Positions 16,485-49,098 of a stretch of DNA of 62,016 nt are shown piece by piece. The translations under genes were made by a program, and so were the position numbers. The stretch covers positions 1 through 62,016 of the forward strand of contig JAUXSB010000036.1 in the NCBI GenBank assembly GCA_030681595.1, given 5' to 3'. Below the pieces are notes generated by a model, which worked only from the letters and a program-made list of their open reading frames with translations, did no database searches and had not been told where the DNA came from. This DNA comes from Candidatus Omnitrophota bacterium (GTDB lineage Bacteria; Omnitrophota; Gorgyraeia; Ghiorseimicrobiales; Ghiorseimicrobiaceae). Within the stretch, counting starts at the first letter, position 1, and each line of letters starts with the position of its first letter.

Positions 16485-16498
16485 CTATTTGTCTCCCG

Positions 16499-16575
16499 CT
16501 TCAAGCTCCAAGCCGTATGTTTTAAGCCTGAAGCTTGCGGCTTTGGCTAATTGGAAGCCAAACCACTGCCCTCTG
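16499..16575 (-). repeat. two adjacent word hairpins: a CAAGC/GCTTG type, plus a GGCTTTGGCT..AGCCAAACC unit related to the terminal tandem repeat
   Basis: cttcaagctccaagccgtatgttttaagcctgaagcttg, followed by ggctttggctaattggaagccaaaccactgcc. Compare ggctttggctaagcggaaagccaaaccattgcc at 61909-62016. Confidence 0.75.
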
Positions 16576-16589
16576 GCTTGCGGCTATGA

Positions 16590-18428: not shown

Positions 18429-18490
18429 CTCTGCCTCGTTTTTAACGCATAACACACTTGCCCGCCGAAGCTTTGTGGCGGGTAGCGCGG

Positions 18491-20371: not shown

Positions 20372-20417
20372 TGCTACATCCTTTGTTCTATTAATTTTTC
20401 GCTTTTCATTTTTAATT

Positions 20418-23674: not shown

Positions 23675-23694
23675 TTCTTGTGTGCATTGCTTCC

Positions 23695-23780
23695 TTCGGC
23701 AATTCAGCCATCCGCCAACGTACTGTGGTGGATCTGTAATTTTGCGCCCCCTGATTACTCAGGGTTTGCCTTTTCGAGAA
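23695..23780 (-). promoter_or_regulatory. candidate c-di-GMP-I (GEMM-I) riboswitch aptamer
   Basis: Minus strand: AAAAGGCAAACC CUGA-GUAA-UCAG GGGGCGCAAAAUUACAGAUCCACCACAGUACGUUGGCGGAUGGCUGAAUUGCC. It has the GGCAAACC core, a 4-bp helix capped by a GNRA tetraloop, the GGGRCGCAAA junction and a second bulged helix, as in the V. cholerae Vc2 aptamer. Confidence 0.65.
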
Positions 23781-23995: not shown

Positions 23996-25210
23996 TTAAT
24001 GCCCTAACTTCTTAATAATCTCCAGGATCGGCAAAAACATCGAGAGGGCAATCGTGGCAACTATGCCTCCCAAAAAAATGATTAACAACGGCTCTATTAA
24101 AGACATTAAAGCCCCGATAGCCGCATCCGCTTCACTTTCATAAAAATCCGCGATTTTATCCAACATCGGCGAAATACTACCCGTTTCCTCCCCCACCGTA
24201 ATCATATCTACAACCAGGGGGGCAAAAACGCCCTTGCCTGAGGCTTTAAGCGAATCACCGATTTTTTCACCCCGCGAAACCCGGGCCCTGGCACCCATAA
24301 GCCCTTTTTCTACTACCATATTATCAGCAGTTTTGGCTACTATTTCTAATCCATTAATGATGGAAATACCGCTCTTAACCAAGGTGGCCAAGGTGCGGGC
24401 AAAACGCGCGATCACTACCTTAAGGATAATATTGCCGAACACCGGCGTCTTTAAACACGCCCTATCAAAATTATAGCGGCCGGTTTCGCTACGGACATAC
24501 AGCCTGAGGGCAATAACAATCGCGGCTATCGCTGCCAAAAGATACGGATAAAACCCGCGGATAAGATCGCTTATCTTAATTACTATCTGCGTAGGCAGCG
24601 GCAGTTCGATTTGCAGGGAAACAAACATCTCCCGAAACGATGGGATTACTTTAATAAAAATAAAGGATGTGATTAAGACCGACATAGCAACTACTATCGC
24701 CGGATAAATTAAAGCCCCCTTCAATTTACGGGCGAGCTTATCTATTTCTTCTAAGTAACCGGCCATTTTTTCTAAGATCAAATCCAAGGCACCCCCCATC
24801 TCGCCGGCCTTGACCATATTGACATAGATAGAAGAGAATACGCGCGGATGAGCCGCCATTGCCTCAGAAAGGCTGCGCCCGGATTCAATATTAACCTGCA
24901 GGGAGTTAACCATCTTTTTTAAAGTCTTGTTTGTTACCTGATCATGGATAATGCTTAATCCTTTAACTAGAGGCACCCCGGCTTTAACCAGTGTGGCAAG
25001 CTGGCGAGAAAACACTACCAGCTCATTTAGCTTTACCCCTTTTTCTCTGCTAAGAAAAGACATGCCTTCGGCTTTTATTTCGTTAACAGAGACGATTGTT
25101 ACCGGCTCCTTTCTTAAAAAAGAAATGACGCTGGCACGATCGCGGGATTCTACTTCGCCTTGAATACGCTGGTTTTTGACATTAATAATACTATATTTAA
25201 ACTTGGACAT
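23996..25210 (-). CDS. pilC: type IV pilus / T2SS platform protein PilC (GspF family)
   Basis: 404 aa. Duplicated GspF domains and three TM segments. Motifs LATLVKAGVPL and LATLVKSGISI. Confidence 0.9.
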   Translation of the reverse strand: MSKFKYSIINVKNQRIQGEVESRDRASVISFLRKEPVTIVSVNEIKAEGMSFLSREKGVKLNELVVFSRQLATLVKAGVPLVKGLSIIHDQVTNKTLKKMVNSLQVNIESGRSLSEAMAAHPRVFSSIYVNMVKAGEMGGALDLILEKMAGYLEEIDKLARKLKGALIYPAIVVAMSVLITSFIFIKVIPSFREMFVSLQIELPLPTQIVIKISDLIRGFYPYLLAAIAAIVIALRLYVRSETGRYNFDRACLKTPVFGNIILKVVIARFARTLATLVKSGISIINGLEIVAKTADNMVVEKGLMGARARVSRGEKIGDSLKASGKGVFAPLVVDMITVGEETGSISPMLDKIADFYESEADAAIGALMSLIEPLLIIFLGGIVATIALSMFLPILEIIKKLGH

Positions 25211-25211: not shown

Positions 25212-26840
25212 TTATCCTTCCGGGGTTACCCGCATAATCTCTTCTACGGCGATTTCTCCTTTTAAGGCCTTCTCTATGGCGTCCTCTCTTAGCGTGCGCA
25301 TGCCGTGCGCGCGGGCGTAAGCTCTGATTTCATCTAACGGTGCCCTCTTTAATATCATCTGCCGCACAACATCATCCACGCTTAACGCCTCCACCACAGC
25401 AACCCTTCCCAAATAACCGCTCTTATTGCAGGCATCGCAACCCGCCCCGCGATAAAGTACGACATTTTTCTCTAAAACAAACGCCGATAAGCCGGCAATG
25501 CTTCCGGTGGGAACCTCATACGGCTCTTTACATTTTACGCAGATTTTACGCGCCAAGCGCTGGGCCGCGACTAAAATTAAAGTGGAAGCAATAAGAAAAG
25601 GCTCAACCTTCATGTCCATAAGCCGCACTATCGCGCTGGGCGCGTCATTAGTATGCAGGGTGCTTAAGATAATATGCCCTGTCAGGGCTGCCTTCATTGC
25701 TATGTCCACAGTTTCATAATCACGAATTTCTCCGACCATTATTACGTCGGGGCTTTGCCTCAATACCGCCCGAAGGGCCGCGGCAAAATTAAGGCCGATA
25801 TCCGGTTTTACCTGTATTTGCGTCAACCCTTTCATCTGGTATTCTACCGGGTCTTCAACGGTAACTAAATGTTTGTGGGGAGTATTTAGCCTGCCCATAA
25901 TGGAATAAAGCGTGGTAGATTTTCCTGAACCGGTGGGGCCGGTCAAAAGAATCATCCCGTATGGCTTGCTTGCTGCCTCTGTAAATGCCTCCAGCGCGTA
26001 AGTAGAAAACCCCAGCCTTCCTAAATCCATAGACATGCTGGTTTTATCCAAAATCCTTAAAACTGCCTTCTCCCCGAAATGAACGGGTAAAATGGATACG
26101 CGGAAATCCACCTCCTTGTCTTTTAATTTTAAAGAGAACCTGCCATCCTGCGGCGTGCGCCTTATGGTTATGTCTAAACCCGACACAATCTTAATCCTGG
26201 CAATGATAGCCGCGGTATTCTCGCGAAATAACGGGGTACGTTCCTGCATAATACCGTCTATACGGAACCTTAAGCGCAACACATCCGAATACGGCTCTAT
26301 GTGAATATCACTTGCGCGTAAATCAATCGCATCTTTAACAATATTATTAACCATGTTGACTATCGCGGCGTCTTGGCTAACCCTGATTATTTCTTTAATA
26401 TCAAGGCCCTCCTCATCAACAGCGGCAGGCTTCCAAATAAGCTCAAGCTCTCTGTCTTTCTTAAGCGTTTCCTCGCCGATTAACAGGTCTATTACCAAAG
26501 AGCTATAATAATCATCCTGCGATTTTTTGATTTGAGGGGCGGTAGCCACCACCGGCTGGATATTGCACTTGGTAATAATCTTGAGGTTATCCAGCACAAA
26601 CACTTCAAAAGGGTCCACCATTGCAACAGTCAAAACCATCCCCATTTTTGCCAAAGGCATAATGCGGTAACTGCGCGCGAGATGTTCGGGAACAGCCTTT
26701 AAAACATCCGTGTCTACTTTATATTTAGCCAGATTTATCGGGGGGAAACCAGAATCTTCAGAAACGGCGATTAATTCCCTCTGTTCTTCGGAGACCTCTT
26801 GTAAATCAACAGCTTTTGGTTTTTTGATTCCTTCTTTCAT
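25212..26840 (-). CDS. pilB: type IV pilus assembly ATPase PilB (GspE family)
   Basis: 542 aa. T2SSE_N-type N-terminal domain, Walker A GPTGSGKST, Asp and His boxes, and the C-terminal CxxC..CxxC cluster (CVKCKEPY ... CDACNKSGY). Confidence 0.9.
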   Translation of the reverse strand: MKEGIKKPKAVDLQEVSEEQRELIAVSEDSGFPPINLAKYKVDTDVLKAVPEHLARSYRIMPLAKMGMVLTVAMVDPFEVFVLDNLKIITKCNIQPVVATAPQIKKSQDDYYSSLVIDLLIGEETLKKDRELELIWKPAAVDEEGLDIKEIIRVSQDAAIVNMVNNIVKDAIDLRASDIHIEPYSDVLRLRFRIDGIMQERTPLFRENTAAIIARIKIVSGLDITIRRTPQDGRFSLKLKDKEVDFRVSILPVHFGEKAVLRILDKTSMSMDLGRLGFSTYALEAFTEAASKPYGMILLTGPTGSGKSTTLYSIMGRLNTPHKHLVTVEDPVEYQMKGLTQIQVKPDIGLNFAAALRAVLRQSPDVIMVGEIRDYETVDIAMKAALTGHIILSTLHTNDAPSAIVRLMDMKVEPFLIASTLILVAAQRLARKICVKCKEPYEVPTGSIAGLSAFVLEKNVVLYRGAGCDACNKSGYLGRVAVVEALSVDDVVRQMILKRAPLDEIRAYARAHGMRTLREDAIEKALKGEIAVEEIMRVTPEG

Positions 26841-26991: not shown

Positions 26992-28212
26992 TCATTTAGT
27001 AGTTACCCTTACCACCTCTTCCATTGTAGTTATGCCCCCCGCCGCTAAGCTCACCGCGATCTCCCGTAAAAGAATCATCCCTTCTTCCCGGGCGCACTTA
27101 CGGATTTCTGATTCGGGAGCGTTAGAGATAATGAGTTTCCTGATATTGGGGCTTACTTCCATAGTTTCTGCCAAGGCGACCCTGCTTTTATATCCGGTAT
27201 TATTACATCCAACACAGCCTTTGGCTTTATACAGCTGCGACACCTCTTTTATTCTCGGGTTTTCCGCTTTAATTCCGGCGGCCACCTCCATGGATACCGG
27301 ATACGGCTCTTTGCATTCGGAACAAAGCGTCCTCAATAAAACCTGGCAGGAAATTAAAAGGCAGGACGAGCTAATCAGAAAAGGTTCCACCCCCATGTCT
27401 CTTAGCCTTATCATGGCGCTGGAGGCAGAGGTGGTATGCAGAGTAGAAAGCAAAAGGTGCCCGGTTAAAGCCGCCTTAACCGCGATATCCGCCGTCTCAG
27501 AATCGCGAATTTCTCCGATAAGAATAATATCGGGGTCCTGTCTTAATATTGAGCGAAGCGCAGATACAAACGTAAGCCCGATGCTCTCCTGAACCGCCAC
27601 CTGATTTATCCCGGATAATTCATATTCAATCGGGTCTTCAACAGTAAGGATATTGGTCTCGACTGAATTAATAAAATTTATTGCCGAATAAAGCGTGGTA
27701 GTTTTGCCGGAGCCTGTCGGGCCGCAGACTAAAATCATGCCGAACGGCTTAATTAGGTTGCGCTTAAATAAAACGAGTGTCCTCTCATCAAACCCCAATT
27801 TATTTATATCTAAAATTATCTTTGATTTATCCAAGACGCGCAAGACTATCTTTTCCCCCATGCTCGTAGGAACTATTGAGACGCGGAAATCCACATCACG
27901 CGCCTGAAACTGCATACGGAACCGCCCCTCCTGCGGCAGGCGGTGCTCGGCAATATCCAGGCCTGCCATTACTTTAATGCGGCTGACTATGCCCGAATGG
28001 AATGAAACCGGCAGAGTTATACGCTCATAGAGGATGCCGTCTATCCTATAACGAATCCTCACCGCTTCAGGGTCCGGTTCTATAAAAATATCACTGGTTT
28101 TCTGGTCTATACCGAGAGCTAAAATTTTGGTCACCGCTTTTACCGTTGGCCCATGCGCAACTATGGACTTAGAAATATCCTGTTCAAGTTTTTTAGATTC
28201 CTCCTGCTCCAT
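26992..28212 (-). CDS. GspE/MshE-type secretion ATPase lacking its N-terminal regulatory domain
   Basis: 406 aa. Walker A GPTGSGKTT, Walker B/Asp box, His box, tetracysteine CSECKEPY ... CVGCNNTGY. The start ATG overlaps the end of the upstream MshEN ORF by 20 nt and has its own SD, AGGGAG. Confidence 0.88.
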   Translation of the reverse strand: MEQEESKKLEQDISKSIVAHGPTVKAVTKILALGIDQKTSDIFIEPDPEAVRIRYRIDGILYERITLPVSFHSGIVSRIKVMAGLDIAEHRLPQEGRFRMQFQARDVDFRVSIVPTSMGEKIVLRVLDKSKIILDINKLGFDERTLVLFKRNLIKPFGMILVCGPTGSGKTTTLYSAINFINSVETNILTVEDPIEYELSGINQVAVQESIGLTFVSALRSILRQDPDIILIGEIRDSETADIAVKAALTGHLLLSTLHTTSASSAMIRLRDMGVEPFLISSSCLLISCQVLLRTLCSECKEPYPVSMEVAAGIKAENPRIKEVSQLYKAKGCVGCNNTGYKSRVALAETMEVSPNIRKLIISNAPESEIRKCAREEGMILLREIAVSLAAGGITTMEEVVRVTTK

Positions 28213-28651
28213 AATTCTCCCTTTGCGCCTTCTTTAATTCTGAAGGCGTAGTAACAAAAATTTTTATCTTCAGGCCCAGGGCTTCCTCTAAGCCCTTAAG
28301 CGAATCTTCATCTAGCGGGTTTAACATCGCCACGGTAAGAATGTTGCCTATCCTGTCTACGGGCATGATATTAAATTTTTCGGCGCTTTCTTGAGGAACG
28401 AGCGTTAGGGTTTCCTCATCGATAGAACAGTTGGCAATCTTGATATAGGGATAGCCCAATTGCATTGCCAAAGCGCTGTAAATTTCCTCCTCGGTGACAT
28501 AACCTAAATCGCTTAAGACTTCGCCTAAAACCTTCCCCTTGCACTTGGTGCGCTGCAAGATTAATGCCTCTTCCAGGCGTTCTTTAGTAATTACGCCTTT
28601 TTCTAAAAGGAGTTCACCAAGCCGGGTTTTTAATCTTCGTTTTGGCGGCAT
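28193..28651 (-). CDS. stand-alone T2SSE_N / MshEN domain protein (predicted c-di-GMP receptor)
   Basis: 152 aa. RLGELLLEKGVITKERLEEALILQ matches the MshEN motif RLGxx(L/V/I)(L/V/I)xxG(L/V/I/F)(L/V/I)xxxxLxxxLxxQ exactly. A second, degenerate copy follows (VLGEVLSDLGYVTEEEIYSALAMQ). Confidence 0.75.
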   Translation of the reverse strand: MPPKRRLKTRLGELLLEKGVITKERLEEALILQRTKCKGKVLGEVLSDLGYVTEEEIYSALAMQLGYPYIKIANCSIDEETLTLVPQESAEKFNIMPVDRIGNILTVAMLNPLDEDSLKGLEEALGLKIKIFVTTPSELKKAQRENYGAGGI

Positions 28652-28662
28652 ATCTTATGGGC

Positions 28663-28816
28663 ACATAACTTACGAACATATGGTGCAGTAAGTTATAAGT
28701 GCGAGTTAGGCCCCACACCCAGATACTTCGAAGTATTTCTTCCTTAAGCTGGGTGTGGGGTTAAATTCAACCAGATAAGTTATGCCGCCGTATAATTAGG
28801 CATCCATAACTTATGC
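28663..28816 (-). repeat. cluster of three hairpins (TATAACTTA words; CCCCACACCCAG/CTGGGTGTGGGG)
   Basis: cacataacttac...gtaagttataagtg (28663-28701). A perfect 12-bp stem at 28711-28722/28749-28760 encloses the palindrome atacttcgaagtat. ataagttatgcc...ggcatccataacttat (28775-28816). Confidence 0.75.
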
Positions 28817-28818
28817 CT

Positions 28819-31800
28819 TTATTTAATTTTCCTGCTTAATACTTTTTTTATCAAGAGCTGCATCTCTTTATTTTTTTCAATCTCAAGCAAACCGGATAAA
28901 ACATCGTCGGAATTTTTAGTGCCTATTACGCCCAGCGCTGACACCGCCTGCCGGCGCAACTCTAAATCTTCATGGTAAAGAAACGACTCAATTGCTTCAG
29001 ACAAACCCTCCTTGCCGAGGTAGCCGGCCAACTCCAGAAGAATCGACAGGTTTTCCTTGTTTTTTTCCTCGGACAAATATTTCTTTACTTTAACCAAGGC
29101 TGTCTCGCCCATTTCTTTTAAGACTGCGGCTACGCGTTTACGCATCGCATATCCCTCAAAAGAATCTTTGGCAATTTTCTTTGCGCTTAAGCAGATATCT
29201 AGCAGCGCATCGCAAGAAGCGCTACCTAAAATCTCAAGTAACGCTTTTACCCGTTTAGGCTCAGCCTGAAAATAATCCAAGATAACGGCAACCAGCATCT
29301 CCAAAAAGTTAACCACTTTTAATGTGCTTTGAATAAAGGTTGTTATCGCGCTATATAGGGCGGTATCTTCGGGAGCCTGAGATTTAAGCCTCTTCTCCAG
29401 GATGCTAAAAACCTCGGCAATAAACACCGCGTAATCTTTCCTAGAAGTCTTCTCTACGACCAAATACAACTCTTCCGGCTCCAGGCTTTTCATAAAGTCT
29501 TCGCTTAGCCATTTTATAATATCTAATATTTCGCTATAAACTTTGGGGTCGGCCTCAACCCTTAATATTTCAAGGAACACCTGGCATCTGCTTAAAATAT
29601 GGGTATCTTTACATATAAATTCTTTAATAATTTTGCTTATTTTTTTATGCGTCTCCAGATCGCTGGCTAAAGCTTTAAGCATAAATGATTGAATCAAGCT
29701 TTTAAACCCCGGGGTATCCTGCCCGTAAAACAGCTCTTCCATAAAGGCGCCGACGAGGCTTAAATCAATTGTCGCAAACTCTTCTTGCGGTAAATCGAGA
29801 AGGGCCTTTAACCTTTTCTCTCTCGCAAGCTTATTCCAACCGGACTTGCTACAAAGCGAGCCGACAGTCTCTTTATCCATCCCTAATTCCGTAAGCTTTG
29901 CCTCGACCAACGGCAGGACCTCCCGTTTTTTAGCCGCGGACGGCGTAGCCTTATCAATTAAATCTTTTACCACTAAAGGGTTATCTGAACCCTCGCGGAT
30001 ACTGCGCTCTATAAGGCTGACGATCTCCTGCGCGGAGAGCTTATTGATAATCTCTTCGGTAATGTTTGTTTTATTGGAAGAGGTTATCTGCGGCTTTAGG
30101 CGGATAAACTTAGCCTTCAGTTTCCAGTCCAATTCCTGAATAACCTTAGCTAAATTCTCTACCGCCTCGGAGGCGGCAAGGCGCTCAACAGGAATTTGCG
30201 CGCTGATTTTTTTTATCGTTTCGGCAAGCACATTAATTTCACCGGTTTTATCTTGCTTTCCGCTGGAGGCGGCAATTTTACTTATAGCCTCCGCAAACTT
30301 CCGCGGCTCCTCGGCGATCTTGGAAAGAAAGCTTTTTTTATCCACATCATCGTGGCCGACCTTACCGAGGAGAAACTCCATCATCATCGCGTCTTCAAAC
30401 TTCTTGCGTGGCCCTGCCCTGCCCAAGCTAGATTTGGCAATTTCTTCATAACTAAACTCATCTATCCTGATATGGGCCAGCCTTTTTTCCTGAATAACCG
30501 CCTTCCATATATTCTTATTCGTCGCTGAGCGCCTTGGCTGGCTAAAATTATCTAAAAATATACTTACTTCTTCTTCGTTAATACCCTGAGTAAATGAAAG
30601 GGATTTTATGTTGCTTTCTACCATAAGAGAAATAAAATCTCCTTCGCCTAATTCCTGAATCTCACGCAAAGAAAAACGCCTGCCGTTTATTACAAGGCTG
30701 TTTCCCGATTCGATAATCTCTAATCTCGGCGTATCTTGCAGGATCAACTCCAGGCTATGGTAAATATCCATCACGAAATTGTTGCGTATAGAGCTACCCG
30801 TGGGGTAAAGCTGAAAATTCTTTACCGCCGACTGGGTCAATTTTATCAGCCGGGATATCTCGACTCGCGTCAGCGCAACCAGCTCTAATTTAATCTCTTT
30901 CTCTTCTCCTGTTTTTATTGCTCTGGCGGCAAATTCCTTGAGGTAATCAACGACTTCTGCCGGATTGAATAGATCCGAGGCCCTTTCTTCTAGGAGGCGG
31001 CCGTATTTGTCGGAAATAACTCCGGCGGCGGCCTTTCCAAAATGCAGCGAAAGATCAGCCGCCACATCGGATAAATCATCCTCGTGCTCTGAGGCCAACA
31101 TCTCGCCTATTTTCTGATGCAGGTTTTTTTGCTCTTCTTCGCTTAACTCGTTATACAGCGCGTCCTGTATCCCGCTGCTAATAAAATTAAATTTGCCGAT
31201 TTTCTCCGACTCTTTTACCAAATGCTTCTTCTTCGCCCGGGCCATTACTTCAAATATGTAACCTTCGTTTTTTTCGCCTAATTTTTTAAGTAAATCGACA
31301 CTAAAGTCTTCTCCGATAACCGCTGCCTGCACTATCAGCTCCTTAGTTTCTTTATCCAGCGTCTTTACCCGCCTCTTAATAGTTTCTTCCAATGAATTGG
31401 GTATATCTATTGCCTCAAGGCCCGCGGCCAGGCCCCATCCGTTATCTTTATAAACTAAAAGCTTATTCTCCGCCAGCGACTTAAATATCTCCTCAATAAA
31501 AGCCGGGTTTCCTTTAGTGATCTCAAAAATAGAGTCGCTTAATTCCTTGATTTGTTTTAAGCCGGGGAACATCGCTTCAATCATCTCACGCGTATCGCGT
31601 TTAGCTAAATCCGGTAACGGTATTTCTATGGCATTTTCGCCGTTATGCAGATATTCTAACAACTGCGCAAGGGCGCTTTTTTCTCCCCGCTCAACAACAG
31701 GTTTGCCTTTTAAGGTAGCTATGGCCAATATTTTTCTTTTCTTCTCGTATTTAATGAGGTAATGCAATAATTCTATGCTGGCGTTATCCGCCCACTGCAA

Positions 31801-32865
31801 ATCATCAAAATAGAGGATCAACGGATTCTTAGAATTTATCGCGATCAACAAATCCAACATTGACTTAAACAGTAACGCCCTTGCTTCTTTGCCTGCCAAG
31901 GACGATCTTGCGCCCTCTATCTGCGGAAGCAATTTAGCCAATTCGGCTAATTCATCTTCGGGGAGAATAGAGATGAGTTCTTGGGCCTGCAGGCTATGCG
32001 GGCGTATATTGCTTAAATAATTATCTAGTGCTGCGGCAAAAAGATAATAAGGGTCTTCCGCATGTTTGTGAGCGCCTTTGGCGGTAAGGACTACCGCCTC
32101 ATTTTTGGCATAATTACTAAACTCTTCCGCTAACCTGCTCTTCCCCGTGCCTGTCTCGCCGTAAATAAGAACGGCGGTTAAAAGGCCCTTGCTTAAAACC
32201 GTACCGCTATATGCCTCTTTAAGCTTCGCCATCTCGGTATCTCTGTCAATAAATTTTGGGCAAGGAAAAAAATCCAGGGCCATCTGGGTAGCCGCGCTCT
32301 CCAGAGTAACTTCCTGCGAATACGAAATTTGGTTTTTCCCTTTTTCCTTAGATAAATAGAGGGCCTTATCGGCAAGGTCTATCAGCTTATCTACCTCGGT
32401 AGAATCAGCCGGGCAAAGAGAAAAACCCATGCTTATAGTCAGGCGTATCTCCTGCCCATCTTTAGCCCGGAAAGATGTTTGGGCTATTTGTTCAACTAAA
32501 CGCTTTCCCAGGCTTAGTCCCGTCTCTTTGTCAACTCCGGGGAGTAATACCATAAACTCATCTCCGGCGTAGCGTATTACCATATCAGTCAGCCTGCGGG
32601 TTTTCTTCAGCGCTTCAGAAAACTGTTTTAAAATTTCGTCTCCGGAAAGATGCCCGCATGTGTCATTTAACTCTTTAAAATTATCTATGTCTATGATAAA
32701 TACTCCCAAAGAATAATCGCTGAATTGCGATTTTTTGATTTCCTGGGGAAGAAACTCGTAGAGGTAATAACGGTTAAATAACCCCGTCAGAGGATCAATA
32801 AAGGTGGGTTTTTCAAAACGGATGTCTTTAACCGGTTCCTGAGGGCGCAATTTCTCATTGTCCAT
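28819..32865 (-). CDS. GGDEF (diguanylate cyclase) - STAND/AAA_16 NTPase - helical/HEAT-repeat protein
   Basis: 1348 aa. N-terminal GGDEF domain (DPLTGLFNR, DIDNFKELNDTCGHLSGD, RYAGDEF with RLTD five residues upstream, which is I-site-like). Walker A GETGTGKSRL and Walker B LILYFDDLQWAD. Long alpha-helical region ending in HEAT-like repeats (EDLELRRQAVSALGVIG). Confidence 0.8.
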   Translation of the reverse strand: MDNEKLRPQEPVKDIRFEKPTFIDPLTGLFNRYYLYEFLPQEIKKSQFSDYSLGVFIIDIDNFKELNDTCGHLSGDEILKQFSEALKKTRRLTDMVIRYAGDEFMVLLPGVDKETGLSLGKRLVEQIAQTSFRAKDGQEIRLTISMGFSLCPADSTEVDKLIDLADKALYLSKEKGKNQISYSQEVTLESAATQMALDFFPCPKFIDRDTEMAKLKEAYSGTVLSKGLLTAVLIYGETGTGKSRLAEEFSNYAKNEAVVLTAKGAHKHAEDPYYLFAAALDNYLSNIRPHSLQAQELISILPEDELAELAKLLPQIEGARSSLAGKEARALLFKSMLDLLIAINSKNPLILYFDDLQWADNASIELLHYLIKYEKKRKILAIATLKGKPVVERGEKSALAQLLEYLHNGENAIEIPLPDLAKRDTREMIEAMFPGLKQIKELSDSIFEITKGNPAFIEEIFKSLAENKLLVYKDNGWGLAAGLEAIDIPNSLEETIKRRVKTLDKETKELIVQAAVIGEDFSVDLLKKLGEKNEGYIFEVMARAKKKHLVKESEKIGKFNFISSGIQDALYNELSEEEQKNLHQKIGEMLASEHEDDLSDVAADLSLHFGKAAAGVISDKYGRLLEERASDLFNPAEVVDYLKEFAARAIKTGEEKEIKLELVALTRVEISRLIKLTQSAVKNFQLYPTGSSIRNNFVMDIYHSLELILQDTPRLEIIESGNSLVINGRRFSLREIQELGEGDFISLMVESNIKSLSFTQGINEEEVSIFLDNFSQPRRSATNKNIWKAVIQEKRLAHIRIDEFSYEEIAKSSLGRAGPRKKFEDAMMMEFLLGKVGHDDVDKKSFLSKIAEEPRKFAEAISKIAASSGKQDKTGEINVLAETIKKISAQIPVERLAASEAVENLAKVIQELDWKLKAKFIRLKPQITSSNKTNITEEIINKLSAQEIVSLIERSIREGSDNPLVVKDLIDKATPSAAKKREVLPLVEAKLTELGMDKETVGSLCSKSGWNKLAREKRLKALLDLPQEEFATIDLSLVGAFMEELFYGQDTPGFKSLIQSFMLKALASDLETHKKISKIIKEFICKDTHILSRCQVFLEILRVEADPKVYSEILDIIKWLSEDFMKSLEPEELYLVVEKTSRKDYAVFIAEVFSILEKRLKSQAPEDTALYSAITTFIQSTLKVVNFLEMLVAVILDYFQAEPKRVKALLEILGSASCDALLDICLSAKKIAKDSFEGYAMRKRVAAVLKEMGETALVKVKKYLSEEKNKENLSILLELAGYLGKEGLSEAIESFLYHEDLELRRQAVSALGVIGTKNSDDVLSGLLEIEKNKEMQLLIKKVLSRKIK

Positions 32866-33073
32866 TAGGAGTTATTATATAGCCTGCGCTATCGTGATGT
32901 CAATATGTTACTTGTATTAATAATACGCTAACTCTTTTAATCTCTAAATGTTTTGCGAATTCTTCCGGGGGATAACGGGAAAAGCGTAGGCAGATATTTT
33001 TCTAAAAAATTTTGCCGGGTAAACGGTGGGAGAATCGTAAATCCGCGCATTGGCTAAAAGCGCGCATAAAACG

Positions 33074-34573: not shown

Positions 34574-37500
34574 TTAGTTAAAGGCGAGTTTTACCTCTCT
34601 TAAATCCTGGCTGGCTTGGAGGACTGTAAAGAACCGGCTTGCTTCTTCGTCTAATTCTTGCCGCTGGCTTAATTGACTTAATAACTCTAAGATAGCCGCC
34701 TTCTGGGTAAGGTCTTTAATGAGGCCATATTTTACAAAAGATATTATTTCGTGGACATGTAGCAGGGCCAAGCTATCCCAGCCTTGATTTAAAGCCCTTG
34801 TTGCGCGCAGGATTTTTACGTCCGCGGCGTTAAGGCTAGATACATATTTTTCGTCTTTAAGGATTAATTCTATTTTGCTTAGGTCGATACCGCCTTTATC
34901 CGCCTCCGATAAACCACTATCTCTGTATGTTTGTAACGGCATTATTCTATTTAGTGACGCTTCATTTTCCCCGGCTAACGCCGCGGTGGATTGCTCATCA
35001 GGCGTGTTTTGAATAGTGGCGAGTTTTTTAAAATCATCCACGACGCTTGTGATATTTTGATATTCTGCTTCGCCAAAACGGGCCTTTGCTTGGCTTAATT
35101 TTTCCTTTACCTTAGCGATAAACGCTTCAAGCTCTTTTACTTTTTCGCCACCGCTAAAATTATCTTTTATTATCGCGCTCAGCAATTCTTCCCGGTCGTC
35201 TTCCTGTATCAACCCTCCGGGCAAACTTAAGGCCTTTAGGGCTGTTTCTTTCAGCGCTTCCGCAACCTGCGGAACCATGCTTAATTCTTTGCTTAATCTA
35301 CCCTGGCGCTTTAAATAATCCAATGTATTTAAAAAATCGCCTGCCGCTTTATCCATCGACAAAGGAGAAAAAGCAAGGCTGCTGCCATCTTTTTTTAACA
35401 CCTTTCCTTCGCTATCCAAATCAAACACTAATGTATTTAAGCCGCGTTTGGAGAATCTGTAGCCCCGGCTATCCAATAAGACGACCAGCTTATCAAATGC
35501 GCTATCATTAACCGAAAACTCGGCGCTTGCTTCCTGCGCTGTATTCCTTACTCTCTCCCAAAAATCACTATAAGGCTTAAAAAGATTTTCATACCCGAAA
35601 CCCCCGGCAAGCATTCCGTTTTTAGAAAACACGGCCTCTGTTCCTAAAGCCACCGGAACAAGCTTAAGGCCGGCATCGGTTTTTTGGTTTTTGTAAACCA
35701 TAAATTCCATTAAAGGAGCAAGCCCTTGCCCGGAAGCCTTATTGCCTATAAGAATATACCCGCCTTCTTTTACATTTTTTGCCAATATGCCCAATACTTC
35801 ATTTTCCCGCCCCTTATAATAATCCATACCGTTAAAGAAACGCACAACATCCGCCTTTTCTTCCAAGGCCAGATTAAACAAATCACCCTCTTTGAATTTT
35901 AAATTCGCAAGCTCATAATCTTTAAAAGGGCTGACGATTCTTTTATTACCATTTTCATCTTTGAAAACATTGTTTTTAATCAAAAGCTCCCTGCGCCTTA
36001 AAACATTCTCTATCTCTTCCGGAGACAAAGAATCACTTCCCGCGTATCCATATAAGAATTGTTCGTTTGCGTCGAAAAAAGCAACAATCTCTTCACCCAA
36101 ACCAAGCGGCCTTCCGGACATGTCGGTATAAATCTCTACTGTTTCCTGCGGGATAATACGGTCCATGCCTATAACATTTGCCCGTCCGCCCAAAGCCGCG
36201 GCCAACTCATTTGTAGTCGCGGGAATACGGCCCATACCAATATCTAAAACCACGGGCTTGCTTTCCTCATTCCCAGGCTCATCTTTAAGCAAGCTGCTGA
36301 TGTAAGGGTGTGTTGCCGCTAATCTCTTTTCGTAAGTTGTTCCGGGGGTTAAATGCCCTATTTCACGCTCGTCTATTTTTCTAGAGGAATAAGCATTAAC
36401 GATCCTCTCGGCGGTTTTAAGATTCCCCTCCGCGGATAATTTTAGCAGATAAACATCGCTTGCTTCTATATTCTCTATTTTATTAAATCCGTCGAGCGCC
36501 TCTCGATAAAGCGGCAACGCGTCTTTAAACGCTCCTACTGACATATATCTGTTTGCCCGCCCAAGGATCTCCTCTGCCCCCGAGGAAACGGATTGCGTTT
36601 CGTTATTCGCCAGCGGCGAGCCGGCAGCGGCATTTTTTAACCTTAAATTTTTAAACGGAATATCTAAAACAATTTCTTTTCTGCCGTCATCTTTTATTAG
36701 CGCAGAAAGCCTGCCGCCAACCTTATTCAGAGATCTTTCTACAGCGCTTAAGCCTTCGCCTAATCCCCCCAGGCCGCCGTATTTTGCCTTATCATCAGCG
36801 GTGAGCTGTTCGGGGCTTAAGCCGTTATCAATAAAGCTGATTTTTAAATTATCTTCTTCTATTTTAAAAGACGCCTCTATCTTTCCGGCATATCCTTGCG
36901 GCCTTAAAATACCTTTTTCCTTTAAGTAGTCTTCCTTGTAAAAAAAGTTGACGGCATCAGAGGCATTTTTTCCAATCTCCCCTAAGCTTTCTTTTAAGTT
37001 AAAATCATTTTTTGGGTCAAGAAAAGACGGGTCATACTCGACAGGCAAAGAGGAGATAAATTTATTCATCTGATATAGATAGATTTTTTCCCGCGGGAAA
37101 AACTCAAGCGGCTTGCTTATAAAATCGGCTAAGGCATTCTTTATCTTTAATCCCTCCCCGTTTATACTGCCCGGGACAAAAAGGTTAGATTGTTTCTTGC
37201 GGGATAATATATATTCTATTCTTTCACCAATGCTCGGGTGGGTCTCCCTGTCCTTTATTCTTCCCTTAATCAGCCCGGCTTTTTCTGCCTCGTCAAATAA
37301 TTCGGGCGTCCTTTTAAGTATACTTACCGCGTCTTCAATGCTATGGCCCTCTTTTTCTATCAGCTCGACTGCCCGCCAATCCATATTATGCTCTTTTTGT
37401 TTTACCGCTTTTATTTTTTCTTTTTCCGGCTTAAATAATCCACTAAAGGTATTTTTAATATTTTGGAATACGCTCGCATTATCGCTATTTTCTAGCTCCG

Positions 37501-38995
37501 CGAGCTCGTGAGCGAATAAAAAAGCAAGCCCCCCCCCGCTAATCTCGCCTGCATGGTATTTGGCAATAATAAAATTGTGCGCCAGTACTTTCCCGAAGGC
37601 CGGCTGTAAAACTATCAAGCCCGGTAAATCGTCTTCAAAATAAAGCCCGGCCGGTTTATATTTTAACACGGGTTTTAGCGCTGTGAATATATCCTCCGGC
37701 GTGGATATCTTTTTCCCTGCTGCTCTGCCTCCCGCTGCCGCGGCGATGGCTGGCCCTTGCCCGCCAGAGGCAAGATTTTTTTTCATTGACGACGCGACAG
37801 AAACAATCTTTAATTCCGTCCGGGACATTTCATTACGAAAAGTCGGATCCGTGCCGCCGATAACAACCAGATTAGAATCATTGGCGAGATCAACTTTTAT
37901 TTTATCTAAGATGCCGGGGGTTTTTAGCGCATCGTTAAGCCCCACCACCTTAAGAGGCGAGGCTGTACCTACGCTGCCTCCTGTACCTAGTGTACCCGGG
38001 ACTGAAAAACCTGTAGTAGTGCCTTGACCGGCCAAGTCCATCACTATGCCGCCGCTCCAATACATCCGCCTTAAACCGAAAAGAGTATCCTGTAATTTAT
38101 ATTCACTTTTTTGATAGGAATCAACATATTCCTGCCAGATTTTCTGCTTTGCCCAAGGGAGCTCCGATTCTAATCCGTTTGTATAGCCGCGGTTAATGCT
38201 CAAGGCAAAGACGCTGGCTGATGATTTATGCTTTCGCTTAAACCACTCTGCCAAAATAAGCGAATGGTAAATCTGGCGTAGCGGCGCATAGGCAGGCCCG
38301 CTATTTATTTCATCTGTCAACGCCGGCAGGATAATCTCTTTCATTAATTTTTCCATAACTACCTGCGTTTCATCCTGCGGGTTTTCTTTTAGGTATTCGT
38401 TTTCCGATAAAACTTTCAGTTTTGCCGAGGCAACCAAAGCACCGTCTTCCGTCTCAACCACCACCGCCTCATCAGGGACAATCCAGACACGGTTGGAGGT
38501 GGCGATTTTCATCTTCTTGACGTTATCTTTGCCGATTGCCGCGTAAAGCTTTTCCCAGAATTCTTTTCCTTTTGCATTTGCCGGATGCAGGTATTTAGCC
38601 GCATCTTTTTTTAGCTGCAAATCCTCTTCGAGCAGAACCCTGCCCATATCTGTTTTAGCGAGCTCTTCGGAAGCGATTCTTTCGGGCTCGTCCGGGCGAA
38701 GATTAACCCAGAGCGTATGGTTAGGCAGGGTTACCCCTAAGAAAAAATAATTGATAAGTTTTTTGGCTTCCCGGTCTAAGTTTTCTTTTGCCTGTGGATT
38801 TACGCCTAAAAGAAAATTAAAGTAGTTAAAGGGGTTGGCAGAATTGACGCTCAGATATTTAAGTACGGGGGGTTGCCCAAAATTAACCCGGGGGTTTACG
38901 GCAGGCAAAACCTGAGCAAGCCCCGAAGAATGGGCGCAAAAACACAAAGCTGCCGTCAAAGCGATGGTTTTCTTAAAAAGGGTGCTATGTCGCAT
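34574..38995 (-). CDS. very large secreted multidomain protein (degenerate M48-like region, GHKL-ATPase-like domain, TPR-like region, class I SAM-methyltransferase-like domain)
   Basis: The ORF is open to 39040, but MRHSTLFKKTIALTAALCFCAHSSGLA (start 38995) is the signal peptide. FAHELAELEN ... ETHPSIGERI resembles an M48 site with HExxE instead of HExxH. NASDAV / DNGLS / GGLGGLGEGLS resemble GHKL N, G1 and G2 boxes. VVLDIGMGRIP ... VIGMDR resembles SAM motifs I/II. Confidence 0.6.
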   Translation of the reverse strand: MRHSTLFKKTIALTAALCFCAHSSGLAQVLPAVNPRVNFGQPPVLKYLSVNSANPFNYFNFLLGVNPQAKENLDREAKKLINYFFLGVTLPNHTLWVNLRPDEPERIASEELAKTDMGRVLLEEDLQLKKDAAKYLHPANAKGKEFWEKLYAAIGKDNVKKMKIATSNRVWIVPDEAVVVETEDGALVASAKLKVLSENEYLKENPQDETQVVMEKLMKEIILPALTDEINSGPAYAPLRQIYHSLILAEWFKRKHKSSASVFALSINRGYTNGLESELPWAKQKIWQEYVDSYQKSEYKLQDTLFGLRRMYWSGGIVMDLAGQGTTTGFSVPGTLGTGGSVGTASPLKVVGLNDALKTPGILDKIKVDLANDSNLVVIGGTDPTFRNEMSRTELKIVSVASSMKKNLASGGQGPAIAAAAGGRAAGKKISTPEDIFTALKPVLKYKPAGLYFEDDLPGLIVLQPAFGKVLAHNFIIAKYHAGEISGGGLAFLFAHELAELENSDNASVFQNIKNTFSGLFKPEKEKIKAVKQKEHNMDWRAVELIEKEGHSIEDAVSILKRTPELFDEAEKAGLIKGRIKDRETHPSIGERIEYILSRKKQSNLFVPGSINGEGLKIKNALADFISKPLEFFPREKIYLYQMNKFISSLPVEYDPSFLDPKNDFNLKESLGEIGKNASDAVNFFYKEDYLKEKGILRPQGYAGKIEASFKIEEDNLKISFIDNGLSPEQLTADDKAKYGGLGGLGEGLSAVERSLNKVGGRLSALIKDDGRKEIVLDIPFKNLRLKNAAAGSPLANNETQSVSSGAEEILGRANRYMSVGAFKDALPLYREALDGFNKIENIEASDVYLLKLSAEGNLKTAERIVNAYSSRKIDEREIGHLTPGTTYEKRLAATHPYISSLLKDEPGNEESKPVVLDIGMGRIPATTNELAAALGGRANVIGMDRIIPQETVEIYTDMSGRPLGLGEEIVAFFDANEQFLYGYAGSDSLSPEEIENVLRRRELLIKNNVFKDENGNKRIVSPFKDYELANLKFKEGDLFNLALEEKADVVRFFNGMDYYKGRENEVLGILAKNVKEGGYILIGNKASGQGLAPLMEFMVYKNQKTDAGLKLVPVALGTEAVFSKNGMLAGGFGYENLFKPYSDFWERVRNTAQEASAEFSVNDSAFDKLVVLLDSRGYRFSKRGLNTLVFDLDSEGKVLKKDGSSLAFSPLSMDKAAGDFLNTLDYLKRQGRLSKELSMVPQVAEALKETALKALSLPGGLIQEDDREELLSAIIKDNFSGGEKVKELEAFIAKVKEKLSQAKARFGEAEYQNITSVVDDFKKLATIQNTPDEQSTAALAGENEASLNRIMPLQTYRDSGLSEADKGGIDLSKIELILKDEKYVSSLNAADVKILRATRALNQGWDSLALLHVHEIISFVKYGLIKDLTQKAAILELLSQLSQRQELDEEASRFFTVLQASQDLREVKLAFN

Positions 38996-39129
38996 AGTTA
39001 AATAATTTAAGTATAATAAGGCTATATATAAATATACCACATTTTTGCGGCGGGTATAAGAGGATAGGAAAGTTTCGAAGAAAGCGCTTTCAAAGAAAAA
39101 CCCTAACTGTAAAAAATTAGAGTTTTATT

Positions 39130-41965: not shown

Positions 41966-46019
<4,054 letters not shown>

Positions 46020-46030
46020 AAGACCAATCC

Positions 46031-47125: not shown

Positions 47126-47252
47126 TATTATTCCTCCGATGATTACTAACTATATTAAACAAATAAAATAGTAGTTGTAGTAGTAGTGGTGAATATAAAC
47201 TTTGATAAGCCTGAAACTACACGGGCTTGCGCGGGTTGTAAATAAAAAAACC

Positions 47253-47261: not shown

Positions 47262-47269
47262 GGTTTTAA

Positions 47270-49066: not shown

Positions 49067-49098
49067 TTGTCGCTGGCCGGGGCCGGAGTTGTTGAAAA

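Follow-up and report, generated by a model that had tools for sequence, protein, structure and literature searches.

A predicted STAND-gated diguanylate cyclase encoded beside type IV pilus genes in Omnitrophota

The long open reading frame (ORF) at positions 28819..32865 of the 62,016-nt window (the whole stretch of DNA that was analyzed; this and all features below lie on the minus strand) encodes a 1348-amino acid protein that is probably a cytoplasmic, STAND-gated diguanylate cyclase which feeds local c-di-GMP to a pilus motor, and not an immune protein. Three parts can be recognized in this protein: a GGDEF domain, an AAA_16/STAND NTPase and, at the C-terminus, a HEAT-repeat helical solenoid, giving the order GGDEF-STAND-(alpha/beta domain)-HEAT solenoid. 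Its catalytic, I-site and NTPase motifs are intact, each of its domains is under purifying selection as judged by dN/dS, and across the phylum its gene adjoins one for an MshEN protein within pilus clusters.

Gene integrity, distribution and domain order

The ORF begins with ATG and runs unbroken for 1348 codons, with the stop included in its coordinates. It is a genuine gene and not a chance ORF, since it has >80 full-length colinear homologues (26-88% identity) and a dN/dS of 0.11 over the whole gene when compared to an 88%-identical orthologue (L001). These colinear orthologues, of ~1350 amino acids with few gaps over deep divergence, make up a family that is essentially confined to Omnitrophota, and all genomes which contain a member are groundwater metagenomes. 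The locus is part of the core chromosome near oriC, ~15 kb from dnaA, dnaN, gyrB and gyrA. A putative sigma-70-type promoter at 32874..32903 (TTGACA, an 18-nt spacer, TATAAT) matches the consensus at 12/12 positions, and the end of its -10 box is only 8 nt from the ATG, so the cyclase mRNA probably has little or no leader.

A first-pass annotation of this DNA had proposed a tripartite layout of effector, Walker A/B NTPase and C-terminal helical repeats, and this is borne out by domain calls combined with AlphaFold2 (AF2) modeling and Foldseek searches. GGDEF and AAA_16 score above their Pfam cut-offs and HEAT_2 below its own. An AF2 model of residues 190-1348 has a pLDDT of 86 and a pTM of only 0.48, so the inter-domain packing that it predicts, autoinhibitory contacts included, is unreliable.

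The GGDEF effector domain

The predicted diguanylate cyclase domain (residues 22-179; 32329..32802) matches Pfam GGDEF with an E-value of 4.2e-42 and 144 bits (cut-off 23.8) and NCBIfam TIGR00254 with 154.8 bits, and its alignment with active diguanylate cyclases of solved structure spans the domain end to end (E 6e-35 to 1e-21). As first noticed in the sequence, the active-site motif reads AGDEF (100-104) instead of GGDEF, and an RxxD I-site, RLTD (91-94), lies exactly five residues upstream, a spacing shared with PleD (R91-L-T-D94-MVIRY-A100-G-D-E-F104; 32554..32595). Among 78 family members, A100 is present in 77/78, the G, D and E of the motif in 78/78, R91 in 71/78 and D94 in 74/78. We take D59/D61, K64, N67, D76, K173 and K177 to be the counterparts of PleD D327/D329, K332, N335, D344, K442 and R446, on the basis of PleD numbering anchored on its I-site (R359-D362) and GGEEF motif (368-372) and not of a printed alignment; all of these columns, plus GDEF, are invariant or nearly so across the 78 orthologues. 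By its sequence, the domain thus keeps all catalytic, substrate-binding and I-site residues and is predicted to be an intact c-di-GMP-making enzyme and not a degenerate one, in agreement with the effector function first assigned to it. Constraint on the protein is strongest in this domain (dN/dS 0.03). The replacement of the first Gly by Ala may nevertheless reduce or alter activity.

The STAND NTPase module

The central region had been taken for a P-loop NTPase of the STAND type, and both its sequence and its predicted fold point to this assignment. The nucleotide-binding domain (residues 205-372; 31750..32253) matches Pfam AAA_16 with an E-value of 4.7e-20 and 73.2 bits against a gathering score (GA) of 32.6. 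It contains the Walker A motif GETGTGKS (236-243; 32137-32160) and a Walker B region (349-360; 31786-31821) in which LILYFDD (349-355) is followed by LQWAD; in the family alignment (n=78), K242 and D354 are each conserved in 76/78 sequences and D355 in 72/78. A STAND helical domain and a winged-helix domain (residues ~373-575; 31141..31749) are indicated by TIGR03903, which aligns with residues 206-614 (E 7e-34), by conserved columns, by AF2 secondary structure and by matches to MalT, CED-4 and Apaf-1. The helical domain includes the GxP motif TKGNPAFIEE (450-459), in which the family shows no variation at GNP and little or none at G452, P454, F456, E458 and E459. The predicted model has a STAND fold, its top Foldseek matches being 6mfv (STAND-TPR), MalT (8bob, TMt 0.64), CED-4 and Apaf-1, with plant resistosomes also among the best structural matches.

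The NTPase has a dN/dS of 0.09. The position usually occupied by the sensor-1 Arg after Walker B is not conserved in the family, so ATP hydrolysis may be slow or absent. Sister proteins with the same NTPase carry a different effector (TIR, Ser/Thr kinase or class III cyclase) or different repeats (TPR), and such exchange of parts around one NTPase is the STAND pattern.

The C-terminal region

The C-terminal 900 residues had been described as a HEAT-repeat sensor region. A HEAT-like solenoid is indeed predicted there by AF2 and Foldseek, but its sequence is recognizable as HEAT in no more than the last ~90 residues, and the solenoid is preceded by the STAND helical and winged-helix domains, a helical arm and an alpha/beta domain. 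The arm and a low-confidence linker (residues 576-660; 30886..31140) connect the nucleotide-binding (NOD) module to this middle domain; in the AF2 model the arm helices are at model residues 387-467, and pLDDT falls below 50 at model residues 460-471.

The alpha/beta domain (residues 661-804; 30454..30885), defined by AF2 and conserved columns, is conserved, uncharacterized and previously undescribed. A model of residues 655-825 has a pLDDT of 86.9 and a pTM of 0.80, and fold searches with the domain gave no match in the PDB (best E 0.24) or among viral structures in BFVD (best E 0.19), while sequence searches gave no noteworthy match in the PDB and none in Pfam or NCBIfam. An L-Y-P triplet (686-688), Arg694, Asn727 and Trp787 do not vary in a 19-sequence subset alignment (A3). 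Across the 70-sequence alignments, invariance is confined to Pro688, with Leu686, Tyr687 and Asn727 close to invariant. The dN/dS of this domain is 0.09.

The alpha-solenoid (residues 824-1348, ~525 amino acids; 28822..30396) is modeled as helical hairpins throughout, with pLDDT mostly 85-94, and its Foldseek matches include SF3b155, FANCI, beta-catenin, importin-13 and PP2A-A. AlphaRep proteins match it (E 3.7e-6), residues ~1241-1332 score as PBS/HEAT-type repeats, and HEAT_2 aligns with residues 1262-1332 (E 1.2e-4) at 22.7 bits, under the 27.7 cut-off; precomputed calls place HEAT_2 in most orthologues, and P0143, a longer relative, scores 72 bits with it. Selection on the solenoid is purifying and not diversifying (dN/dS 0.16). 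The unit formed by the alpha/beta domain and solenoid is also found alone or fused to cNMP-binding and PilZ domains, and this association with receptor domains fits a unit that docks onto a shared target. The C-terminal region may act as a sensor, as first proposed, or just as well serve for docking.

Association with a type IV pilus gene cluster

The gene directly downstream (28193..28651) encodes a predicted stand-alone MshEN c-di-GMP receptor of 152 amino acids (PF05157, NF053729), with the canonical c-di-GMP-binding motif RLGELLLEKGVITKERLEEALILQ at residues 10-33, a second motif at 41-64 and 63.6 bits against the NF053729 c-di-GMP_motif model (cut-off 38). A gene for such a protein (150-162 amino acids) directly follows that of the cyclase in 9/9 distinct loci with readable downstream sequence, whose cyclases share 28-88% identity, and this pair is set among PilB, PilC, PilM, PilO and secretin genes. 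The MshEN ORF overlaps by 20 nt the ORF of a 406-amino acid PilB-type ATPase without the N-terminal MshEN part (26992..28212; T2SSE, E 1e-126). Positions 2-136 of TIGR02538 match the MshEN ORF and positions 165-563 match the ATPase ORF, so that the two predicted products jointly cover a full PilB and constitute a split PilB, which is also found in L001, L003, L007, L018 and L020.

The cluster continues with a second PilB-type ATPase of 542 amino acids, whose N-terminal domain is without the c-di-GMP motif in domain and motif searches (25212..26840), and the PilC platform protein (T2SSF; 23996..25210). A c-di-GMP-I-GGC riboswitch aptamer (RF03167, 61.3 bits against a GA of 59, E 5e-12) lies at 23694..23779, in the leader of two genes whose products carry pilin N-methylation motifs by domain calls: a Kelch-repeat pilin (22064..23623) and a second pilin (21390..22058). 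Aptamers of the c-di-GMP-I type are present in five of the pilus clusters. With a receptor motif in the MshEN protein and a riboswitch ahead of the pilins, the earlier description of these pilus genes as c-di-GMP-responsive is plausible.

Between the cyclase and MshEN genes is a conserved, structured intergenic element (28652..28818), recognized by folding, by comparison with L001 and by motif counts. Besides a GC-rich hairpin of 12 bp, the near-palindrome ATAAGTTAT occurs in it four to five times, a number that exceeds chance; its predicted fold has an energy of -59 kcal/mol (z -5.2), and it is 95% identical to the L001 element, compared to a dS of 0.57 at synonymous sites of the flanking gene. 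A search of Rfam with this element gave no match.

Relationship to known systems

The NOD, with Walker A, an hhhhDD Walker B, GxP and winged helix, is the same as that of Escherichia coli MalT (8bob), the MalT/AAA_16 clade and the archaeal STAND-TPR protein 6mfv, and in the MalT clade, as here, a helical-repeat region follows it. In MalT, which senses maltotriose, the repeats are SUPR/TPR-like and a LuxR DNA-binding effector is C-terminal, whereas the Omnitrophota protein has an N-terminal diguanylate cyclase and a C-terminal part composed of the alpha/beta domain and HEAT-like solenoid. A cyclase that needs dimerization is also N-terminal to a similar STAND NTPase in the TOMM kinase/cyclase fusion TIGR03903 and in class III adenylyl cyclase-AAA_16-TPR(-LuxR) proteins, of which we take the Mycobacterium tuberculosis Rv0386 group to be an example and which include P0110 (PF00211, AAA_16 and TPR). 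These proteins differ in having a cNMP cyclase and not GGDEF as effector, TPR repeats and no pilus-gene link. Ser/Thr kinase-AAA_16-(TPR)-GAF-GGDEF proteins (~1600-1800 amino acids, many phyla), such as one from Herpetosiphon llansteffanensis (L012), combine the same NTPase clade and GGDEF in one polypeptide. In these, however, the N-terminal effector is a kinase, a GGDEF or GGEEF motif is C-terminal behind GAF domains, and there is neither a mid-domain/HEAT module nor a pilus link.

PleD and WspR share the canonical GGDEF catalytic residues and an RxxD five residues before the motif, and they are activated when oligomerization of a regulatory domain joins their GGDEF domains. Their regulatory domain is a phosphorylated receiver and their motif GGEEF, in contrast to an NTP-driven STAND module of >1100 residues and AGDEF here. 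AGDEF is also the active-site motif of VCA0965 from Vibrio cholerae, which synthesizes c-di-GMP (PMC3974145); VCA0965 has another architecture with no STAND module, whereas AGDEF is fixed across the whole Omnitrophota family. The tandem 24-residue MshEN motif of the downstream protein is that of MshE/PilB-type ATPases, and c-di-GMP binding by the MshEN/GSPII domains of pilus ATPases is established (PMC11731258). Unlike in those ATPases, MshEN is here a separate polypeptide always encoded beside the cyclase, and the ATPase encoded next is without its own N-terminal domain in one sub-clade.

Alternative functions

The effector-NOD-repeat logic and a structurally similar NOD are shared with Avs, Apaf-1 and NLR proteins, and the sister set of the NTPase includes a TIR-AAA_16 protein (L021). 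On this basis the solenoid might recognize a phage protein and the cyclase make an abortive-infection alarm signal, a function suggested by matches to Apaf-1, CED-4 and plant resistosomes. It is very improbable, as a defense-system HMM search of the protein gave only a P-loop fragment (E 0.004), its colinear orthologues stay in fixed pilus-operon synteny over deep divergence (9/9 loci), its own locus is core chromosome, the solenoid is not diversifying, the protein has no toxic effector, and the neighboring receptor is a pilus-motor domain and not a toxin. The likeness to immune proteins that was first noted here thus extends to the architecture and no further; the genomic context argues for housekeeping signaling. 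There is a similarly slim chance that the product is another cyclic dinucleotide, such as the 3',3'-cGAMP of Hypr GGDEF enzymes: in 6d9m, which gave the best sequence match in the PDB (E 6e-35), the base-recognition position is occupied by Ser, the Hypr signature, and the riboswitch is a GGC variant of c-di-GMP-I. Yet this position (D76) is the canonical Asp in 78/78 members, never Ser or Thr, the substitution S348D turns the Hypr enzyme GacA into a pure diguanylate cyclase (PMC6456294), and the partner MshEN protein carries a c-di-GMP motif.

If AGDEF were a dead active site, the conserved I-site could bind c-di-GMP from elsewhere and make the protein a c-di-GMP-controlled STAND adaptor. In favor of this, the Ala is near-universal, and in relatives other cyclases (HAMP-GAF-GGDEF and CHASE2-GGDEF-HD-GYP) adjoin the pilus cluster. 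This is improbable, because the substrate and metal residues usually lost from receptor-type GGDEF domains are retained (in the PleD numbering used above), no part of the protein is more constrained, and an AGDEF enzyme is active. A docking scaffold without a switch, in which an I-site-limited cyclase makes c-di-GMP locally with no ligand gating while NTPase and solenoid only tether it to the pilus base or form a static oligomer, is unlikely but deserves more weight. It would accommodate the lack of conservation of the sensor-1 Arg, the occurrence of the alpha/beta-solenoid unit alone or fused to receptor domains, as expected of a docking module, and a perfect-consensus promoter that would permit transcriptional control. 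However, Walker A, Walker B and GxP are almost invariant across 26-88% identity and, together with the NTPase dN/dS, argue that the protein depends on binding or turnover of nucleotide; in MalT and Apaf-1, among the STAND proteins that have been studied, the NTPase acts as the switch.

A model for local control of pilus assembly

In the preferred reading, a STAND-gated cyclase, the resting protein would be a closed monomer, presumably ADP-bound, in which the alpha/beta domain and HEAT-like solenoid keep the nucleotide-binding domain shut. The C-terminal module would take a ligand, most likely a type IV pilus machine or cell-envelope protein, and binding would lead to nucleotide exchange and oligomerization via the NTPase domains. 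This would gather the N-terminal GGDEF domains and turn on c-di-GMP synthesis by induced proximity, since GGDEF catalysis requires dimerization (PMC7825114). Each half of such a dimer carries one GTP. The conserved I-site would then cap output through product inhibition. The c-di-GMP may be captured by the MshEN protein encoded immediately downstream, which in this lineage would be the detached N-terminal domain of the split PilB extension ATPase, and the riboswitch before the pilin genes may respond as well. The outcome would be a local turning-on or tuning of pilus assembly, and phylum-wide conservation beside MshEN inside a type IV pilus cluster makes pilus control, not immunity, the most likely function of this family.

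The cyclase gene and its family

The gene at 28819..32865 (- strand) is a single, unbroken ORF of 1348 codons that starts with ATG, and both these coordinates and the layout proposed in the first-pass annotation, a GGDEF effector followed by a STAND NTPase and a HEAT-repeat region, were borne out by reading of the ORF and by Pfam and NCBIfam calls. Pfam GGDEF (PF00990) spans residues 22-179 (E 4.2e-42; 144.1 bits against a cut-off of 23.8; profile positions 2-161 of 161), and TIGR00254 calls the same domain at 154.8 bits (cut-off 37.4). Pfam AAA_16 covers residues 205-372 (E 4.7e-20; 73.2 bits, GA 32.6), while TIGR03903, which describes a kinase/cyclase fusion with an NTPase of the same kind, covers residues 206-614 (E 7e-34). 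Toward the C-terminus, HEAT_2 (PF13646) matches residues 1262-1332 at a sub-threshold 22.7 bits (GA 27.7).

When 5.8 billion proteins were searched by a word index, this protein, hereafter the cyclase, fell into a family of ~1350-residue proteins that are colinear end to end at 26-88% identity. All members with a named source come from Candidatus Omnitrophota/Omnitrophica MAGs, and their existing annotation reads 'diguanylate cyclase' and nothing more. The cyclase sequence itself is present in groundwater DNA metagenomes only, with no RNA-seq run among its holders, and the window contains no other copy of its C-terminal module, NTPase or GGDEF domain. A profile scan of genome contigs with the family alignment, for which the patterns used were those of generic GGDEF domains, returned at least 4 loci, all of them distant kinase-AAA_16-GGDEF genes; a metagenome scan with the GNP/WHD alignment returned at least 9 loci and was used for the analysis of synteny. 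In one 88%-identical relative (L016, 939-4924), the gene is read as two ORFs of 126 aa and 1207 aa with a break near residue 120 that reflects either a frameshift or a fault in the assembly.

Conservation of the GGDEF domain

The motif region of the cyclase reads R91-LT-D94-MVIRY-A100-GDEF, so that, as the first-pass annotation had it, an RxxD lies exactly five residues ahead of AGDEF. In a 78-sequence alignment of the family, the first Gly of the motif is replaced by Ala (A100) in 77 members, while G101, D102 and E103 are present in all 78, and the I-site keeps R91 in 71 members and D94 in 74. Alignment with cyclases of solved structure, PleD and WspR included, runs over the whole domain (E 6e-35 to 1e-21), and little or no variation is seen across the family at D59/D61, K64, N67, D76 and K173, with K or R at position 177. 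By a mapping onto PleD residue numbers, anchored on the PleD I-site R359-D362 and GGEEF 368-372, we take these residues to be PleD D327/D329, K332, N335, D344, K442 and R446; N335 falls within the xND motif and D344 within GDExL, and their counterparts in the family, N67 and D76, do not vary. On this assumed mapping, the metal-, phosphate- and guanine-binding positions are all kept, and the proposal that the domain is an enzymatic effector, which loss of the other catalytic residues had been named to overturn, survives in an alignment where those columns are retained.

Hypr GGDEF enzymes, which make cGAMP, carry Ser at the base-recognition position, and an S348D change made GacA a pure diguanylate cyclase (PMC6456294). 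The presence of Asp76 at this specificity position predicts GTP as the substrate, and the expected product is c-di-GMP. Since c-di-GMP synthesis has been demonstrated for VCA0965, an AGDEF enzyme (PMC3974145), Ala in place of the first Gly does not exclude activity. Relative to the 88%-identical orthologue of locus L001, dN/dS of the GGDEF domain is 0.03.

The STAND NTPase

The central region contains a Walker A motif (GETGTGKS, 236-243), a Walker B motif followed by LQWAD (349-360, with LILYFDD at 349-355) and an invariant or nearly invariant GxP motif (TKGNPAFIEE, 450-459); K242 and D354 are each kept in 76 of the 78 members and D355 in 72. Residues 190-1348 were modelled with AlphaFold2 from a 70-sequence alignment; the mean pLDDT is 86 and the pTM 0.48, the latter making the inter-domain geometry of the model unreliable. 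When this model was compared with the PDB by Foldseek, the top match was the STAND-TPR protein 6mfv (E 4e-7), followed by MalT (8bob; E 3e-6, TMt 0.64) and then CED-4, Apaf-1 and plant resistosomes; Cdc6/ORC also match as more distant relatives, as expected from the wider AAA+ relationship. The AAA_16 score above cut-off, the conserved Walker A/B and GxP motifs and this MalT/6mfv-like predicted fold thus corroborate the earlier assignment of the region as a STAND/AAA_16 NTPase.

Relatives of the NTPase include GGDEF-NTPase-TPR proteins of 1120-1153 aa with MalT-like TPR, as well as TIR-AAA_16, class III cyclase-AAA_16-TPR and Ser/Thr kinase-AAA_16-GAF-GGDEF proteins, so that TPR can replace HEAT, and the place of the N-terminal GGDEF domain can be taken by TIR, kinase or cNMP cyclase. 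Such swapping of effectors and repeats is the pattern typical of STANDs. The TIR-AAA_16 protein at locus L021 (680-4138; 1153 aa) has an NTPase related to that of the family, here combined with an effector of the immune type.

A composite C-terminal region

The 900-residue C-terminal region of the first-pass annotation does contain a HEAT/ARM-like solenoid, but in the AlphaFold2 model the region is a composite with several other parts. STAND helical and winged-helix domains occupy residues about 373-575 and are followed by a helical arm that ends in a low-confidence linker (576-660), a compact alpha/beta domain (661-804), a disordered linker (805-820) and an all-helical solenoid (824-1348). 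Structural matches of the solenoid are the HEAT/ARM proteins SF3b155, FANCI, beta-catenin, importin-13 and PP2A-A, and residues about 1241-1324 match alphaRep (designed HEAT) proteins at E 3.7e-6. By precomputed calls, PF13646 is found in most orthologues, and it reaches 72.1 bits in a longer relative (P0143). The solenoid is under purifying selection (dN/dS 0.16), as is the alpha/beta domain (dN/dS 0.09).

Modelled alone, the alpha/beta domain reaches a pLDDT of 86.9 and a pTM of 0.80. Fold searches against the PDB (best E 0.24) and BFVD (best E 0.19) gave nothing significant, and the domain has no sequence match in the PDB and none in Pfam or NCBIfam; weak GAF-like matches (probability <=0.08, TM about 0.2) were not accepted as evidence. 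Its L-Y-P triplet (686-688), Arg694, Asn727 and Trp787 are invariant in a 19-sequence subset alignment; in the 70-sequence alignments full invariance is confined to Pro688, and Leu686, Tyr687 and Asn727 come close.

With residues 655-1348 as query, 414 relatives were found among 1.84 billion representative proteins. Besides the cyclase family, the alpha/beta domain and HEAT solenoid also occur alone, in proteins of about 700-750 aa, and fused to cNMP-binding and PilZ domains (P0246 and P0253, the former a complete gene at L009 8001-11474). At that locus, the P0246 gene is preceded by one for a 672-aa paralogue that has the module alone. Because the module is joined to either a c-di-GMP synthase or a c-di-GMP receptor, its distribution points to docking onto a common target rather than to sensing of a small molecule.

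A conserved link to type IV pilus genes

Synteny was analyzed in nine loci with readable downstream sequence (the window, L001, L003, L005, L006, L007, L008, L018 and L020), which span 28-88% identity and were taken from the loci listed by the scans. In all nine, the cyclase gene is followed directly by one for a 150-162 aa stand-alone MshEN protein, in most cases after a gap of 3-30 nt, and the pair is surrounded by genes for PilB-type ATPases, PilC, PilM, PilO, secretin and pilins. The MshEN protein of the window (28193..28651, -; 152 aa) has the tandem 24-residue motif RLGxx(L/V/I)(L/V/I)xxG(L/V/I)(L/V/I)xxxxLxxxLxxQ, with a canonical copy, RLGELLLEKGVITKERLEEALILQ, at residues 10-33 and a second at 41-64, and it passes the NCBIfam c-di-GMP_motif model NF053729 (63.6 bits against 38). 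On the strength of this motif, it is predicted to be a c-di-GMP receptor. Among the relatives, the motif is mostly near-canonical in the stand-alone MshEN proteins, and the full-length PilBs have a degenerate motif or none.

The MshEN gene overlaps by 20 nt that of a 406-aa PilB-type ATPase (26992..28212, -), which in the sub-clade of the window lacks the N-terminal domain; on the PilB model, MshEN covers positions 2-136 and the ATPase 165-563. The possibility that the 152-aa ORF is the N-terminus of a frameshifted PilB was rejected, as every relative likewise has this ORF standing alone. The two genes therefore represent a conserved split PilB and not a frameshift, and the split is kept in L001, L003 (with 58 nt between MshEN and ATPase), L007, L018 and L020. 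In L005, L006 and L008 the stand-alone MshEN occurs alongside full-length PilBs, and in the first two of these PilC comes next after MshEN.

A c-di-GMP-I-GGC riboswitch aptamer (23694..23779, -; c-di-GMP-I class RF01051/RF03167, with 61.3 bits on RF03167, GA 59) lies between PilC and a Kelch-repeat pilin gene, in the pilin-gene leader. Aptamers of the c-di-GMP-I type, at 63-77 bits, recur in L001 (20959-21040), L003 (20030-20117), L008 (122-201) and L020 (172-269), in each case within the pilus cluster. The downstream gene (22064..23623, -) encodes a 519-aa pilin-like protein with an N-terminal methylation motif and a Kelch beta-propeller, and L001 has two such genes in tandem. The pilus cluster also encodes three tandem paralogues of about 620-650 aa (14631..20437, -), each with a right-handed beta-helix (NosD/Beta_helix) and two with a phage-depolymerase-like C-terminal beta-sandwich, which may be polysaccharide-degrading, pilus-associated proteins. 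Other c-di-GMP enzymes, CHASE2-GGDEF-HD-GYP and HAMP-GAF-GGDEF proteins, flank the pilus clusters of relatives (L003 1185-3635; L005 4719-6083; L008 571-1989); the HAMP-GAF-GGDEF gene of L005 and L006 is in turn followed by a second MshEN gene of the stand-alone kind.

A perfect consensus match to a promoter, TTGACA-18-TATAAT, ends 8 nt ahead of the cyclase ATG, so the gene may head its own, nearly leaderless transcript. The 167-nt spacer between cyclase and MshEN (28652..28818, -) is 95% identical to that of L001, against a flanking-gene dS of 0.57; it folds strongly (z -5.2), with a 12-bp GC-rich hairpin, and contains 4-5 copies of the near-palindrome ATAAGTTAT. Neither a credible Rfam family nor a conserved small ORF was found in the spacer, and more distant relatives, where the gap is 3-30 nt, lack the element.

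Chromosomal setting

The window is core chromosome, with dnaA (47270..48676, -), dnaN (46031..47125, -), an intein-containing gyrB and gyrA 7-16 kb upstream of the cyclase. GC skew flips sign near 48 kb and dnaA/dnaN face yidC (49325..50842, +) and parA/parB; the region of about 46000..49300 is probably the replication origin. In gyrB (41966..45706, -), the intein splicing domain spans residues 458-881 and an HNH endonuclease residues 586-623. At 34574..39040 (-), an ORF of 1488 aa whose N-terminus resembles a signal peptide has no match in Pfam, NCBIfam or PADLOC; its positional counterpart in L001 encodes 2160 aa, and after the ORF come a 230-aa lipoprotein-like ORF and a DUF3786 protein.

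A model for cyclase control, and its alternatives

STAND proteins such as MalT and Apaf-1 switch on N-terminal effectors via ligand-triggered, nucleotide-dependent oligomerisation. GGDEF domains, for their part, are catalytic only as dimers, with one GTP per half (PMC7825114). Taken together, these two properties make a STAND-gated diguanylate cyclase the simplest and best-supported reading of the protein. In such a scheme, binding of a partner by the C-terminal module would lead the NTPase to swap nucleotide and oligomerise, the GGDEF domains would pair and produce c-di-GMP, and the I-site would cap output. The adjacent MshEN protein, and through it the ATPase for pilus extension, would then read the c-di-GMP, as would the riboswitch ahead of the pilin genes. 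Domain layout, intact motifs, predicted fold, purifying selection and gene order come from the data, and from these the activity, the oligomerisation, the ligand and the sign of any effect on pili are inferred.

A more specific version of this scheme, which we consider possible but doubtful, is an NTP-gated 'cyclase signalosome' that runs from the state of the pilus machine through STAND oligomers, c-di-GMP and MshEN to the truncated PilB. Here, the alpha/beta domain and HEAT solenoid would sense the state of the type IV pilus, for example when it touches a host or prey cell; oligomerisation of the STAND would follow, and pairing of AGDEF domains would give a local burst of c-di-GMP that the dedicated stand-alone MshEN adaptor passes in trans to the N-terminally truncated PilB motor. 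If true, the ultra-small, host-dependent Omnitrophota would have a contact-to-pilus circuit of their own that is complete in itself, and the protein would be the first diguanylate cyclase activated by a STAND.

Other readings fit the data less well. A protein that serves as a static docking scaffold, with no switching, is unlikely when its NTPase motifs are near-invariant, and the notion of a dead GGDEF domain that acts as an I-site receptor is less probable again, as its catalytic residues are fully conserved and it is the most constrained part of the protein. Production of another cyclic dinucleotide is hardly to be expected, with both Asp76 and the MshEN motif arguing against it. It is likewise very improbable that the protein is an immune STAND of the Avs or bacterial NLR-like kind: the only PADLOC match is a 26-residue P-loop fragment to mad8 (E 0.004), with none for neighbouring genes, and the family shows fixed orthology, synteny within pilus operons in every locus of the sample, a core-chromosome site near dnaA and a solenoid under purifying selection. 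In addition, its predicted effector and cognate receptor are a cyclase and a pilus-motor domain rather than the toxic effector of a patchily distributed island.

The protein belongs by its parts to two known families, the GGDEF cyclases and the MalT-clade STAND NTPases. It differs from known examples of either in that a cyclase is the N-terminal effector of a STAND NTPase, AGDEF is fixed across the lineage, a new alpha/beta domain and HEAT module is present, and the gene is paired phylum-wide with that of a stand-alone MshEN receptor in pilus operons. In the literature searched, no description of a GGDEF-STAND enzyme was found, and the sole related remark was that GGDEF domains are rare in vWA-MoxR conflict systems (PMC7159879); a further candidate source on AAA_16 (PMC10154355) was set aside, 'AAA16' there being a catalogue number only.

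The conserved alpha/beta domain of ~145 residues, common to the cyclase family and the cNMP/PilZ proteins, is a candidate new signalling module. The way in which diguanylate cyclases are switched on has been worked out for a few input domains, receiver, PAS, GAF, globin and CHASE among them; a STAND NTPase would add to these an induced-proximity, nucleotide-gated route, carrying the principle of the apoptosome and resistosome over to second-messenger synthesis. Omnitrophota are very small, probably host-dependent or predatory bacteria, and no tractable cultures of them are known. Because the cyclase family is fixed across this phylum and hard-wired to a c-di-GMP receptor and pilus motor, it offers a concrete handle on the control of attachment in Omnitrophota, one that is testable in a heterologous host.
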